This document shows positions 38,427 to 62,973 of a stretch of 64,000 nucleotides of DNA, in pieces; positions within the stretch are counted from its first letter, which is position 1; the number at the start of each line of letters is the position of its first letter. Source of the stretch: Candidatus Harrisonbacteria bacterium. Its GTDB lineage: Bacteria; Patescibacteriota; Minisyncoccia; UBA6257; 02-FULL-45-10c. The DNA lies in NCBI GenBank assembly GCA_016214655.1, contig JACROC010000005.1, forward strand, positions 131,078 to 195,077, in the 5' to 3' direction. Both the position numbers and the translations under genes were made by a program. The notes beneath the pieces are model-generated. The model searched no databases, was not told where the DNA came from, and saw nothing but the letters and a program-made list of their open reading frames with translations.

Positions 38427-39165
38427 TCACATTCACAGTCACCTCTTGACTGCCCGATTCAATACTCGGGGCCTTGGCTGCCGCAAAAGCGCCTCCGCGG
38501 CCAAATGTCTCATAAACAGGTATTGGGGGCGGATACCCGCCGGCAGACTCGGAAAAAGTCACTACCCGGCCTATCCGGACCCGATTTTGTTTTGCCATCT
38601 CTTTAGCTTTGATAGATGCTTTTTCAAAAGCTTCTTCCCTGGCTACTTTCAGATATTTATCCGGCTCATCAATATTAAAGTTCAGCGATCCAATCTGGTT
38701 AATACCCAATTCCGGCAAGGAGCCTAAAATTTTACCAATTTTAGAAAAATTGCGTATCTTCACCAAAACGGTTTGCGTTAAAGTATAGCCGCTGATAAAA
38801 GTTTTCTTCGCCTTTTCATCATATTCATAACGCGGAAACAAATTATATCCGACAGTCTTTACATCTTTATCCGCAACGCCTTGTTCTTTTATAAATTGAA
38901 TTGTGGTATTCATTGTTTTATTATTCTCATCCGCAATTTTCTCAGGATCTGCTCCCTCGCTTACTACCGAAAATGTAAAAGTTGTTACATCCGGAGAAAC
39001 CGTGGTTTTACCTTCCGCGCTGACTATTAAAGTCCGTGACGGATATAAAGATCCCTGATATTTATAAAGCGTTTTCAAAGAAGACAGCCCTAATAAAATT
39101 AATACTAATAAAGACGCGTTGACCAACCACCAAAACCAATTTTTTAATTTCTCTGGATTAAACAT
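38404..39165 (-). CDS. SIMPL (DUF541) domain protein
   Basis: Signal-anchor and the periodic pattern of 26-kDa periplasmic immunogenic-protein-like proteins (GYTLTQTVLVKIRNF..., VTVNVSVTYEI). Confidence 0.65.
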   Translation of the reverse strand: MFNPEKLKNWFWWLVNASLLVLILLGLSSLKTLYKYQGSLYPSRTLIVSAEGKTTVSPDVTTFTFSVVSEGADPEKIADENNKTMNTTIQFIKEQGVADKDVKTVGYNLFPRYEYDEKAKKTFISGYTLTQTVLVKIRNFSKIGKILGSLPELGINQIGSLNFNIDEPDKYLKVAREEAFEKASIKAKEMAKQNRVRIGRVVTFSESAGGYPPPIPVYETFGRGGAFAAAKAPSIESGSQEVTVNVSVTYEIR

Positions 39166-39877
39166 AAGAAATCATTTTTTTTACTTCTTCTTTTTTCAGA
39201 CTGGCGCCGCCGACAAGGGCGCCGTCCACCTCCTTATATTTTAAGTAGTCTCTTAGATTTCGGGAATCAACTGAACCGCCGTACAATATTTTAGGGTTTA
39301 GGGTATAGGGTTTAGCGTTCAGGATCTTTCTGATATATTTTATAGTTTCTAATGCTGATTCTGGGGTTTCGGGATTGCCAGTGCCGATTGCCCAAACAGG
39401 TTCATAAGCTACGATAAAAGGGTTTAGGGTATAGGGTCTAGGGTATAGAAAGAGGCCAATTTTTAATTGGCGCTCGATTACTGCTTCTTTTTTGCCAGCA
39501 TTTTTTTCTTCAATAGTTTCGCCAACGCAAAGAACCGGGATCAGTTTATTCTCGGCGGCGGCTTTCATTTTTTTAGCTACCATTTCATCTGTTTCATCAA
39601 ACTTATGCCGGCGCTCTGAATGGCCAATGATAACGTATTTCACCCTAACGCTTTTAAGTTCTTTTGCTGAAACTTCTCCGGTAAAAGCGCCTTTTTCTTC
39701 GTAAAAAAGATCTTGGGCTCCCAGCCGAGATTTTTTTAAAACTTTTCCTACTTCTTCCAAAAAAGGAAATGGCGGCGCCACTACGACATTTTTATAATCA
39801 CTGGCTTTTGCCAAAGAAAGCGCCTCTTTGAGAGTGGCTGGATTCATTTTCCAGTTTAAAATCAGCAGCTTTGTCAT
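39158..39877 (-). CDS. tpiA: triose-phosphate isomerase
   Basis: NWKMN, IIGHSERR and AYEPVWAIGTG motifs. Confidence 0.9.
   Translation of the reverse strand: MTKLLILNWKMNPATLKEALSLAKASDYKNVVVAPPFPFLEEVGKVLKKSRLGAQDLFYEEKGAFTGEVSAKELKSVRVKYVIIGHSERRHKFDETDEMVAKKMKAAAENKLIPVLCVGETIEEKNAGKKEAVIERQLKIGLFLYPRPYTLNPFIVAYEPVWAIGTGNPETPESALETIKYIRKILNAKPYTLNPKILYGGSVDSRNLRDYLKYKEVDGALVGGASLKKEEVKKMISYV
39292..39315. repeat. G-tract heptamer repeat copy inside tpiA (encodes KPYTLNPK)
   Basis: The plus strand reads AGGGTTTAGGGTATAGGGTTTAG. Confidence 0.8.
39419..39449. repeat. G-tract heptamer repeat copy inside tpiA (encodes YPRPYTLNPF)
   Basis: The plus strand reads GGGTTTAGGGTATAGGGTCTAGGGTATAG, with four GGG tracts spaced by 4 nt. 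Confidence 0.8.
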
Positions 39878-39926: not shown

Positions 39927-41001
39927 TTAATTTCGTAAAGAAAACCAAACCTCATTTAAAAGTCTCTCGCGTAACTCATAAGTGTTAGCATGAGACAAAG
40001 CGCCAAGATAAGATTGTAATGATTGTTCAAGTGTTATTTTAGTAATATATCCTAGGTTATATTCTTTGATGCGTTTCCGTATTTTTGTAAATATGCGATG
40101 TTTTGTCTTGATTCGTATCAACCGATACTTTGGAAATATCACATGGCCAAGAAAATCAATGCCTTGATGTAACTTACGAATTATGATTTTCTTTGGATGT
40201 AGCTCCAAAGCAAGTTTCGTCTCAAGAAACTCATTGATCTGCGGCAAAAATTTTTCTAAATAATCCTGATTTTTCGAAACAATAACAAAATCATCGGTAT
40301 AGCGAATATAGTATTTTACTTTTAACCTATGTTTCATAAACTGATCAAATTCGTTCATATAGATATTGGCGAAAAGCTGCGAAGTCAAATTCCCTATCGG
40401 AATACCTTGCGCGGCGATTCTACTCTCTCTCTCTCTCTCTCTCTCGGGCAAACGTCACGCTTTTATAACTTTCAATAATAGATTCCAGAAGCCAAATGGT
40501 GTCACTATCTTTGATACGCTTTTTGATGATGGAAAGCAGGGTTACGTGATCAACGCTGTCAAAAAACTTCCTAATATCGCATTTCAATATAAAGCAAGGA
40601 TTGGCGCCATTCTTACTGACCTTTCTCACTGCTCTTTCCAAAGCTTCCACGCCTCTATGAGTTCCGTAACCGATGCGACAGGAAAACGAGGTAGAAATAA
40701 AGGTCGATTCAAAAATCGGATTGATAATCGAGAAAATAGCATGGTGCAGAACACGATCCCGAACTACCGCTTTATGAATGTGCCGTTGTTTCGGATCCTG
40801 TATATAAAAACCGGTATATGGACCGTGTTGGTAAGTTTTATTTTTCAATTCTCGTTGAAGCTGAAAAATATTTTCCTCCAGATTCCATTCAAACCGAAGC
40901 GCATCAGATTTTTTCCGCTTATCGATTTTAAAAGCCTCCCAGGCTGAAAAAAGATTCTCCGATGAAATAATTTTTGTAAACAGATTTTTATAAATTTTCA
41001 T
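39927..41001 (-). pseudogene. DGR-type reverse transcriptase, split into two ORFs by a frameshift in a (GA)11 tract
   Basis: ORFs 40420-41001 and 39927-40451 are contiguous RT halves. The N-terminus is LFSAWEAFKIDKRKK, followed by KCDIRKFFDSVDH, GIPIGNLTSQLFANIYMNEFDQF (DGR hallmark) and the catalytic RYTDDFVIV. The downstream half is offset by 1 nt. Confidence 0.85.
40423..40445. repeat. dinucleotide microsatellite (CT)11C on the plus strand, which is (GA)n on the RT coding strand
   Basis: Read directly. It encodes the RERERERE at the junction of the two RT ORFs. Confidence 0.95.
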
Positions 41002-41368: not shown

Positions 41369-41400
41369 AAAACGCTCTCCAATTATTGGAGAGCGTTTTT
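41369..41400. terminator. bidirectional hairpin terminator between avd and the TR
   Basis: aaAACGCTCTCCaattattGGAGAGCGTTttt. Confidence 0.6.
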
Positions 41401-41416
41401 AGCGATGGGAGAAATG

Positions 41417-41535
41417 ACTTCCGAGAGGCACCGAGACCAATGTTGTTCCACCTGTTGTCATCCCAGTTGTTGTTGACGTTCAGGCCATTGCCGTCGAAGT
41501 TGCCCACATTGACGCGGTTGCCGTCCGACGTGACA
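41417..41535 (-). repeat. DGR template repeat (TR)
   Basis: 119 bp that align without gaps to 41952-42070. The TR reading frame carries 11 AAC codons (VTSDGNRVNVGNFDGNGLNVNNNWDDNRWNNIGLGASRK). Confidence 0.85.
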
Positions 41536-41821
41536 AATTTGCTCGCCCCCGTCTTTGGCACTGAAAGTCGAGGTTTGCTGTCGCCTAAGGCGACTTATAT
41601 CCTCTTCTTTCTGAATTTTATTTAGGAGCACTCCGATGTTCATCGGAGACCTCCGCTAGAAGCAAGCAAGAAGTTCTGTTCTCCATCTTTATTCACACGC
41701 TATCGCACTCCGTAGAGATGCGACACTCTGGTGACGTCTCAAAGATGAGACATCTTGCGGGATTAAACCGTGGCCTAATCTACATTAGCAAGATATTTAT
41801 ATTGTAATAAATTTGTAGAAA

Positions 41822-41861
41822 TAAAAAAAGAAGCCCCCGGCGCAAAAATCGCGCCGGAGGC
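41822..41861 (-). terminator. rho-independent terminator of the DGR target gene
   Basis: The minus strand reads GCCUCCGGCGCgauuuuuGCGCCGGGGGCUUCUUUUUUU. Confidence 0.6.
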
Positions 41862-41905
41862 TCAAGAGTTCAAGAGAGACAATCCCTCCAGAACTCAAAC
41901 TTCAT

Positions 41906-41945
41906 CCTTCGACTTCGCTCAAGATGACCCTGAGCTTGTCGAAGG
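41906..41945 (-). promoter_or_regulatory. two-part hairpin immediately 3' of the VR
   Basis: CCTTCGAC-aa-GCTCA-gggtcatct-TGAGC-gaa-GTCGAAGG (minus strand), starting 1-2 nt after the target stop codon. Confidence 0.5.
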
Positions 41946-41946
41946 G

Positions 41947-42774
41947 TCAGAACTTCCGAGAGGCACCGAGACCAAGGGAGCCCCCCCTGCCGTCATCCCA
42001 GCCGCGGAAGACGAACAGGCCATCGCCGTCGAAGAAGCCCACAACGACGCGGTAGCCGTCCGACGTGACATCCGTGGTTCGCGCATACCTCGTCGGGTTC
42101 AGATAGATGCCGTTTTTCCGGTAATAGAGAATGTCCTTGAGGACTTCCTCTACTGCGGTCGGCACCTCGTACCCTTGAGGCAGCATAGCCACTTGGTCCT
42201 GGTAGGTCTTAGACTCGGAGTTCGGAACGATCTCCAGAGGCATCAGATACCACCGGAACTTCGCGGTCAGCTTGGTTGCCCAGGTTTGCTGAGAATACCA
42301 CGAACTGGGCGCGTAGCTTGCGAACTTTGGCTGGCCGTTTTGCGGATGCAGCTCCTGCAAGTGGAGGATGGTGAGCGGTTTCCCGTTCACGTTCTCGAGC
42401 CCCAGAAACGCGAAGTGCGTTTCTTTGACTGTCTTGCCTTTGACGAGCGGGCAAGGGGCGTTGAGAACATCCTCTCCCCACGGGAACTCAGCCACTTCTC
42501 GGAGCTGCTTCTTGGTGAACTTCACGCTGTACAGCGCGGTCCACTCTTCCACTCCGAAGAAGTTCTTGCCCTGAATGGCGCGAACCACCTGGTGATTCGC
42601 CGAACCCGACGCTTTGCCGCGAAGCATGAACTCGGCTACGCGTTTCGCGTAATCCGGCTCAGCCCGCAAGCGAGCGAGGTGCTCGGTTGAGACTCCGTGA
42701 TCCTGGAGCGCTTTCAAGGTCGCTCCGACTTCTCCGTAACTGGCTTTCCAGAGACCGCCTGGGTTTGTGCTCAT
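41947..42774 (-). CDS. DGR target (variable) protein, 275 aa, with no signal peptide
   Basis: GC-rich ORF with AGGAGG 8 nt upstream of the ATG. The C-terminal 40 aa (VTSDGYRVVVGFFDGDGLFVFRGWDDGRGGSLGLGASRKF) are encoded by the VR. Confidence 0.85.
   Translation of the reverse strand: MSTNPGGLWKASYGEVGATLKALQDHGVSTEHLARLRAEPDYAKRVAEFMLRGKASGSANHQVVRAIQGKNFFGVEEWTALYSVKFTKKQLREVAEFPWGEDVLNAPCPLVKGKTVKETHFAFLGLENVNGKPLTILHLQELHPQNGQPKFASYAPSSWYSQQTWATKLTAKFRWYLMPLEIVPNSESKTYQDQVAMLPQGYEVPTAVEEVLKDILYYRKNGIYLNPTRYARTTDVTSDGYRVVVGFFDGDGLFVFRGWDDGRGGSLGLGASRKF
41952..42070 (-). repeat. DGR variable region (VR)
   Basis: There are 22 mismatches to the TR. 21 of them fall where the TR coding strand has A, and all 11 TR AAC codons are changed. 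The one exception is T->G (TGG->GGG). An invariant 3' block GGTCTCGGTGCCTCTCGGAAGT is shared with the TR. Confidence 0.85.
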
Positions 42775-42971
42775 GACACTTACCTCCTTTGTTTTCCGTC
42801 TTTCTCTCTTTGTCTTTTGGAGACTTTAGAGAGTTTGCCCTGTCCGGGGCACGGCCTCATCTCGGTAATGAGACGAGTATTTTAAAAACCAATTTTTGAT
42901 TTCCAAAATACTCGTCTCATATGTTTCAGTTTCAAGGTACATCAATCCCGCACTTTGCGAGAATTAAAACA

Positions 42972-62900: not shown

Positions 62901-62973
62901 GTTAGGGGTTAGGGGTTAGGGGTTAGGGGTTAGAAATTTACTAAACCCTCAACCCTATACCCTCGACCCTCAA
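62901..62973. repeat. (GTTAGGG)4 tandem heptamers facing a CCCT-rich inverted arm; rpsD-rpoA intercistronic hairpin
   Basis: GTTAGGGGTTAGGGGTTAGGGGTTAGGGGTTAG-aaattta-CTAAACCCTCAACCCTATACCCTCGACCCTCAA. Confidence 0.85.

Follow-up and report, generated by a model that had tools for sequence, protein, structure and literature searches.

A GA dinucleotide tract as a probable on/off switch of a diversity-generating retroelement reverse transcriptase in CPR bacteria

Introduction

What does it mean that the reverse transcriptase (RT) gene of a diversity-generating retroelement (DGR) is cut into two reading frames exactly at a GA dinucleotide repeat? The question is raised by a stretch of 64,000 nucleotides (nt) from a Candidatus Harrisonbacteria bacterium (contig JACROC010000005.1), hereafter the window. 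An uninterrupted RT is expected of a DGR, and the consensus allele of the window is split by a +1 offset. An earlier note on this DNA had claimed that two RT open reading frames (ORFs) meet at a 23-nt GA tract, 1 nt out of register, and that a change of +2 or -4 nt would fuse them; a repeat-controlled switch, recent decay and an assembly artefact were offered as explanations. DGR regulation is little understood, and many DGRs appear inactive or sporadically active in nature. Here, we find that the tract is very probably a real, conserved and hypervariable switch region at the DNA level, found in many relatives from the candidate phyla radiation (CPR). We further suggest that it probably acts mainly as an ON/OFF gate of DGR hypermutation, i.e., as a slipped-strand contingency locus.

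Results

The RT gene is split at a GA tract

The two halves of the RT gene meet at the tract (Table 1), for which Tandem Repeats Finder gives a period of 2, 11.5 copies and 100% matches. On the minus strand it is flanked as CCC-(GA)11G-TAG, in the wider context AAAGCGTGACGTTTGCCC-(GA)11G-TAGAATCGCCGCGCAAGGTATTCCGATAGGGAATTTGACTTCGCAG. The ORF of the N-terminal half, of 193 amino acids (aa), ends in FARERERERE, and its TAG abuts the tract. The C-terminal half lies in the +1 frame relative to it and runs through a 22-nt linker (40401-40422), GIPIGNLTSQ (motif 4), YTDD (motif 5) and the thumb to a stop at 39927-39929. As called, its ORF occupies 39927-40451 of the minus strand, starts with TTG at 40451 and encodes 174 aa (MPERERERESRIAAQGIPIGNLTSQ). 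GIPIGNLTSQ and YTDD fit the motif 4 signature (I/L)GNxxSQ and the YxDD motif of DGR-clade RTs, both halves match RVT_1, and the best solved homologue of the RT is the Bordetella bRT (8ub7, E=1.5e-43). The DGR around the split gene is complete, with a bAvd gene, a pair of template repeat (TR) and variable repeat (VR), and a target gene.

All three frames of (GA)n read as Arg-Glu repeats and contain no stops. When GA is added, a 358-aa RT results, and when GAGA is removed, a 356-aa RT, with the motifs complete and in order in both cases. Thus, the arrangement claimed in the earlier note was correct throughout, as judged by the ORFs, Tandem Repeats Finder and RVT_1, and the fusion that it foresaw was borne out. 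From its sequence, the window would carry an OFF (out-of-frame) allele of 23 nt, from which the gain of one unit (25 nt) or the loss of two (19 nt) should restore the RT.

In a regular-expression scan, the tract is the only dinucleotide run of more than 4 units in the 64-kb window, where the longest homopolymer is 8 nt. Since it is the sole dinucleotide run of this kind, the tract is no chance feature. In NCBI, MBI4992071.1 and MBI4992070.1 are separate entries on one 271,595-nt contig. The protein database holds no second allele from the same species, its sole 100% match being the window's own C-terminal half, and the contig index holds no exact match to either half-protein of the window.

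The tract is conserved in relatives

Full-length CPR homologues of the fused RT number in the thousands, and the best match has 70% identity. Nine or ten of the top 120 carry in-frame RE repeats of varied length in the same loop before GIPIGNLTSQ, and pure GA runs of 35, 31 and 17-18 nt are found in the DNA of RTs that are 59-70% identical. Because protein searches favour intact genes, we scanned DNA with a frame-blind pattern, namely GAGAGAGAGAGAG, 10-40 nt, and then CCN ATH GGN AAY YTN ACN TCN CA. Species-representative genomes gave 69 loci, nearly all titled CPR/Patescibacteria (6 of the 69 bear the labels Gammaproteobacteria or Pseudomonadales, which are unverified). Metagenomes gave at least 120 contigs with the tract, and 2.9 million viral contigs of IMG/VR gave 0 loci. 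Here and below, locus counts, frame classes, flank groups and relatives with an L number are those among the matches listed.

The closest of these relatives, L194, shares 81% aa identity with the C-terminal half of the window RT. It has the 22-nt linker of the window (TAGAAT(C/T)GCCGCG...), but its tract is 21 nt long, which places it in the other OFF frame. The comparison of orthologous RT genes that had been called for earlier thus finds the tract at the same codon position in relatives, with in-frame alleles among them.

A neighbour-joining tree of 237 RTs places the genes with a tract in a few deep pure clades (35, 33, 14, ... members), within which distances reach 0.7-0.95, and about 10 gains or losses are inferred among the 237. 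These distances suggest that the tract is old. That the repeat has stayed pure over this divergence implies that it is itself selected. Only one other dinucleotide run of at least 6 units occurs in 1.09 Mb of fetched CPR sequence, and therefore these genomes are not microsatellite-rich in general.

Three further observations concern relatives. Contig CAVRXN010000002.1 carries two tract-bearing DGR RT genes (L021 and L048), about 2.6 kb apart in the fetched stretches; their tracts are 14 and 17 nt long, and neither gene is in frame. In L017, a CT run precedes the GA tract (protein ...SLSLSRERES...), and the resulting (CT)n(GA)n palindrome might fold into a hairpin or a cruciform. A protein search with the C-terminal half alone returned more than 100 RT fragments of 141-290 aa from CPR metagenomes, with no full-length protein among the best 120 matches. 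Since fragments fill these 120, split RT calls appear to be very common in public gene catalogues.

Most alleles are out of frame and under selection

Each locus was assigned a frame class by comparing the frame of the long ORF that ends at the tract with that of the PIGN motif, and five loci were verified by hand in three-frame translation. Among 117 dereplicated loci with both halves intact, 23 are in frame (ON), 52 are in +1 and 42 in +2. The in-frame share is 19.7%, compared with 33% expected at random (binomial p=0.0016), and the median tract length is 21 nt (range 13-71 nt). The shortage of in-frame alleles among consensus sequences points to ON as a costly state, usually restricted to a minority.

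All 94 OFF loci retain YxDD in the C-terminal half, D(I/V)xx(F/Y)F (motif 3) in the N-terminal half and normal half-lengths. In the nine informative OFF-vs-OFF pairs with unsaturated synonymous divergence (dS), the median ratio of nonsynonymous to synonymous divergence (dN/dS) is 0.07 for the N-terminal and 0.14 for the C-terminal half. Judged by these ratios, the half downstream of the frameshift is under purifying selection. Since dN/dS is low downstream of the frameshift, the C-terminal half has been translated over evolutionary time and these genes are not pseudogenes. Adenine-biased TR/VR pairs adjoin all 36 OFF and all 5 in-frame loci that have enough upstream sequence.

These data bear on plain pseudogenisation, that is, on a DGR that has lost its function through a recent frameshift and is degenerating. 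The gene is indeed interrupted, and the VR/TR differences of the window attest past activity only. However, its halves are intact with all motifs, the tract is pure and not degenerate, and the cassette is complete. The same configuration is conserved across the clade with purifying selection, and the tract of L194 is intact as well. We therefore regard decay, one of the alternatives offered earlier, as highly improbable.

Tract length varies in whole units

To compare close alleles, loci were clustered by their 250-nt flanks, which gave 28 groups with flanks at least 95% (mostly 100%) identical. Tract length varies in 13 of the 28, always by an even number of nucleotides (2-10 nt, i.e., whole units). 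Some of these changes cross between states: L075, L092 and L142 have 18 nt and are OFF, while L085 has 20 nt and is ON; L071 is ON with 23 nt and L160 OFF with 25 nt. In other groups both alleles are OFF and in different frames, as in L039 and L109 (25 nt, +2; 27 nt, +1), L111 and L151 (15 nt, +1; 19 nt, +2), L141 and L190 (31 nt, +2; 27 nt, +1), and L157 and L175 (31 nt, +2; 21 nt, +1). All three frames are represented by L149, L029 and L166 (21, 31 and 33 nt), of which L166 is ON.

The tract thus has the features of simple sequence repeat (SSR) contingency loci. It is a perfect, 100% pure intragenic repeat with a length sufficient for hypermutability and a unit that is not divisible by 3, repeat number is polymorphic among homologous loci (in the 13 flank groups), and ON and OFF alleles are both present, the OFF alleles being intact and under selection.

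Could the true tract of the window be 25 or 19 nt long, in frame, and the consensus miscalled? Dinucleotide repeats are prone to stutter in the polymerase chain reaction, and there is a single assembly of the species. Against such an assembly or sequencing error, the 23-nt tract is shorter than typical assembler k-mers, and being out of frame is the majority state, found in 94 of 117 independent loci. The same length also recurs in independent assemblies (18 nt in three samples), which argues against random assembly noise, and L194 is out of frame too. The artefact suspected earlier is therefore very unlikely.

In L029, L149, L166 and L051, a poly-G run of at least 8 directly follows the GA tract. 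This run also varies between contigs with identical flanks (GGGGGGGG vs GGTGGGGGGG) and is potentially a second unstable repeat.

The variable repeat changes beside the tract

VR/TR mismatches were counted on the main diagonal of the alignment only. L111 and L151 differ at 20 places over 7.1 kb, namely a 4-nt indel in the tract and 16 VR substitutions, all at TR adenines; a tract of 17 nt, midway between their 15 and 19 nt, would restore the frame. Over the stretch from the TR through the RT end, L142 (OFF) and L085 (ON) differ in nothing but the tract, and they show 19 VR differences, 18 of them at TR adenines. The three assemblies that share the 18-nt OFF allele have identical VRs, while they differ at 7 to about 25 sites elsewhere. 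Across these comparisons, a changed tract goes with a changed VR, and an unchanged tract with an identical one. In these few informative pairs, the VR pattern is as an ON/OFF switch would predict. The DGRs have also been active on the same timescale as the tract change.

The repeat lies in a predicted disordered loop

With a 61-sequence alignment, AlphaFold predicts a confident RT fold, with a mean predicted local distance difference test score (pLDDT) of 87 and a predicted template modelling score (pTM) of 0.82; the prediction from a single sequence (pLDDT 37) was unusable. The sole segment with pLDDT below 50 comprises residues 183-196 (FARERERERESRIA). It is an insertion of about 18 residues relative to bRT 8ub7, immediately before GIPIGSLTSQ. 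The repeat is thus predicted to sit in a disordered surface loop. In such a loop, changes of length should be harmless, and frame alone would be controlled by the tract.

A break at this site brings up the idea of a split enzyme, in which the halves are made as separate polypeptides and assemble across the loop. The break falls in a surface loop that is predicted to be disordered, so that complementation between fragments is physically conceivable. However, an ATG, GTG or TTG in the downstream frame between tract and PIGN occurs in about 24% of OFF loci vs 26% of ON loci, the window has no canonical start between TAG and motif 4, and in-frame single-chain alleles exist. Independent initiation of the C-terminal half was rejected because start codons are no commoner in OFF than in ON loci. 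We consider a split enzyme extremely improbable.

Possible recoding at the tract

A different account of the split gene is recoding. It holds that the tract is a slippery site where RNA polymerase gains or drops GA units or the ribosome shifts by +2 or -2. Any allele would then give a little full-length RT, the tract would be a constitutive attenuator, and length variation in the DNA would be incidental. We consider this account unlikely as the main explanation, and it could coexist with a DNA switch as leakiness.

Several points speak for recoding. The tract can be read through in every frame and gives the RE repeat each time, so that slippage products would be equivalent. Out-of-frame alleles make up about 80% of those in nature and are nevertheless under selection, and the VRs of L111 and L151 differ although neither locus is ON. 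Transfer RNAs on GAG/AGA could re-pair perfectly after a 2-nt shift in either direction, and in one sub-lineage the tract is followed by a GC-rich hairpin with compensatory changes. In endosymbionts, frameshifted genes with poly(A) tracts are rescued by transcriptional slippage. To our knowledge, programmed transcriptional slippage is known from homopolymer runs, and no dinucleotide tract used in this way has been described. Papers on the rescue of frameshifted genes at repeats by transcriptional slippage include PMC5574713 and the review PMC5009743; in E. coli, RNA polymerase can drop 2 nt from the transcript at a dinucleotide repeat (PMC5574713). In the same manner, the GA tract might possibly let some transcripts regain frame. 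A frameshifted but active DGR RT has a proposed precedent in the gut phage Quimbyvirus. In the available excerpt of Benler et al. 2021 (PMC8008677), its RT lies in three overlapping frames for which two programmed ribosomal frameshifts are proposed, and other DGR RTs are predicted as single ORFs only.

Other points stand against recoding. There is no preferred direction (52 loci in +1, 42 in +2), and in-frame alleles are also present; if alleles were neutral with respect to frame, one third should be in frame, and 20% are. The hairpin is absent from most loci and unrelated to frame class, 35 of the 117 loci have linkers of less than 16 nt, and no stop codon lies consistently at the tract end. 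The VR is frozen among the three diverged OFF assemblies. With both offsets alongside in-frame alleles, a hairpin in a minority and a 0-frame stop of varying position, the tract does not look like a programmed ribosomal frameshift site. A narrower form of the idea takes the out-of-frame allele as a resting state favoured by selection, from which RT would be made when RNA polymerase realigns by GA units or the ribosome shifts by +2/-2 on the tract; in our estimate it is quite unlikely. If true, slippage from a resting OFF state would be a new class of recoding signal laid over a DNA switch, metering a self-mutagenic enzyme across a major bacterial radiation.

Two specific signals were tried and rejected. 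A downstream hairpin as a universal frameshift stimulator was discarded because just 25 of 82 long linkers contain a stem of at least 5 bp, the other 35 of 117 lack the length for one, and its occurrence is independent of frame class. A prfB-like stop abutting the tract was discarded as well, the 0-frame stop being at most 3 nt from the tract end in just 15 of 94 OFF loci.

The GC-rich hairpin itself lies 0-4 nt 3' of the tract in about 15 loci (e.g., L005, L022, L024, L053, L058, L067, L077, L093 and L141) and is absent from the window and most loci. Its stems are TTGCGC/GCGCAA, CGGCGC/GCGCCG, TGGCGC/GCGCCA and TTTCGC/GCGAAA, with TTC, TCC or TGC in the loop. Compensatory stem changes inside coding sequence suggest a role at the level of the nucleic acid, e.g., polymerase or ribosome stalling.

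The DGR cassette and other features of the window

The features of the cassette are collected in Table 1. All TR/VR mismatches but one fall at TR adenines, and the VR ends 5 nt before the stop of the target gene. Since the differences fall at adenines of the copy at 41417-41535, this copy is the TR. The lone non-adenine difference, at window position 41425 (alignment column 111), is T in the TR and G in the VR. The target protein has no Pfam match even at E=10.

Table 1. Positions in the window of the split RT gene, its GA tract and the rest of the DGR cassette
Feature	Position	Strand	Remarks
RT C-terminal half, +1 frame	39927..40422	-	RVT_1 positions 111-205; NCBI MBI4992070.1, RNA-directed DNA polymerase
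(GA)11G dinucleotide tract, 23 nt	40423..40445	-	(CT)11.5 on the plus strand; candidate slipped-strand switch
RT N-terminal half, 193 aa	40420..41001	-	Fingers, motifs 1-3; RVT_1 positions 9-99; NCBI MBI4992071.1, hypothetical
bAvd-like accessory gene, 116 aa	41016..41366	+	PF22296, E=1.6e-15
Template repeat (TR), 119 nt	41417..41535	-	82% identical to VR
Variable repeat (VR), 119 nt	41952..42070	-	3' end of target gene
DGR target gene, 275 aa	41947..42774	-	No Pfam match; GC about 57%, against about 42% for the window

The bAvd gene is divergent from the RT gene, with start codons 3-14 nt apart, and the same holds in L002, L003, L004 and L194. The target gene and TR (window 41400-42800) have a GC content of about 57%, compared with 31-42% for the RT gene and the rest of the window. 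In loci L005-L193 the clade medians are 56% for the target, 55% for the TR and 39% for the RT, with a gap of more than 5 points in 40 of 41 loci; this GC split inside one DGR cassette is conserved across the clade.

Elsewhere in the window there are telomere-like heptamer arrays at 39290-39323, 39419-39448 and 62901-62973. A triosephosphate-isomerase-like ORF on the minus strand (39158-39877) contains repeats of the TTTAGGG/TATAGGG type at two places, and in its protein they appear as the duplicated peptide PYTLNP. With a unit of 7 nt, such coding repeats would also change the reading frame if their number varied. The array at 62901-62973 is a perfect (GTTAGGG)x4.7 array followed by 12 nt and an inverted ACCCTNN array. 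A 13-mer of the heptamer has 12 matches in the window, with 2.3 expected.

Discussion

We suggest that slipped-strand mispairing in DNA replication adds or drops GA units of 2 nt, so that the RT gene would cycle through three frames. In one state, ON, a full-length RT of about 357 aa would be made. In the two OFF states the product would be an N-terminal fragment without motif 4 and YxDD, no cDNA would be synthesised, and the VR would stay frozen. Every OFF state would be one unit step away from ON. Targeted hypermutation would then be confined to a minority of cells, as a trait that arises at random, is inherited and can be lost again. The repeat-controlled switch put forward in the earlier note is supported by the conservation of the tract, the ON and OFF alleles, the unit-step variation, selection, and recent adenine-specific VR change.

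Some points weigh against this switch. For the window itself, the 23-nt length call and any switching in its population would rest on one assembly. The link between tract state and VR change comes from very few informative pairs, and one of these, L111 and L151, are both OFF yet differ in VR, which fits an ON intermediate and leaky expression equally. OFF alleles could still yield some RT by slippage of RNA polymerase or the ribosome. In the tree of 237 RTs, the tract-less RTs are a sample biased to the neighbours of the window. We infer functional silence for OFF alleles, the rate at which they switch, and an adaptive benefit from curbing the cost of the mutator.

Among known systems, the nearest are the SSR contingency loci. 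In Helicobacter pylori, CT/GA dinucleotide tracts serve as contingency loci in outer-membrane protein genes. Such loci also include the repeat tracts of phase-variable restriction-modification mod genes (phasevarions), and slipped-strand phase variation in general has been reviewed (PMC11868660, PMC3315296). The RT tract resembles them in being a perfect intragenic repeat with a unit that is not a multiple of 3, in its unit-step polymorphism with ON and OFF alleles, and in being limited to one gene while such repeats are scarce elsewhere in the genome. It differs in that a DGR RT would be controlled, and not a surface or modification gene, so that one mutational switch would gate another mutational mechanism. 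Its hosts are CPR bacteria from the environment and not host-adapted pathogens, and the tract lies mid-gene in a structural loop and not near the 5' end.

Two DGRs offer a second comparison. Like the RT of Quimbyvirus, as described in the excerpt cited above, the RT studied here is not one ORF and belongs to a DGR with adenine-specific VR variation. Unlike Quimbyvirus, for which that excerpt reports no repeat tract or length polymorphism, it has a polymorphic GA microsatellite at one site and is found in cellular CPR genomes. With the DGR of Bordetella phage BPP-1 (8ub7) it shares a homologous RT, GIPIG(N/S)LTSQ, bAvd and adenine mutagenesis between TR and VR. However, bRT is without the loop insert of about 18 residues, and the avd gene of the window is divergent from the RT gene, whereas the order in BPP-1 is avd-TR-brt.

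The literature that we searched, which excluded the main CPR DGR survey (Paul et al. 2017, Nat Microbiol), holds nothing that links a DGR to simple sequence repeats or to phase-variable control of its RT, and the DGR surveys examined make no mention of interrupted RT genes. SSR phase variation is well known; its application to a DGR reverse transcriptase appears to be new.

The finding has consequences for how these elements are counted. Public annotation of this genome presents the RT halves as unrelated proteins, and DGR surveys that demand a single intact RT ORF would call about 80% of these elements broken or partial. CPR bacteria themselves have very small genomes and few regulators; with a conserved microsatellite gating the RT, they could restrict costly targeted hypermutation to a subpopulation in a way that is heritable and reversible. 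If this is true, one evolvability device controls another.

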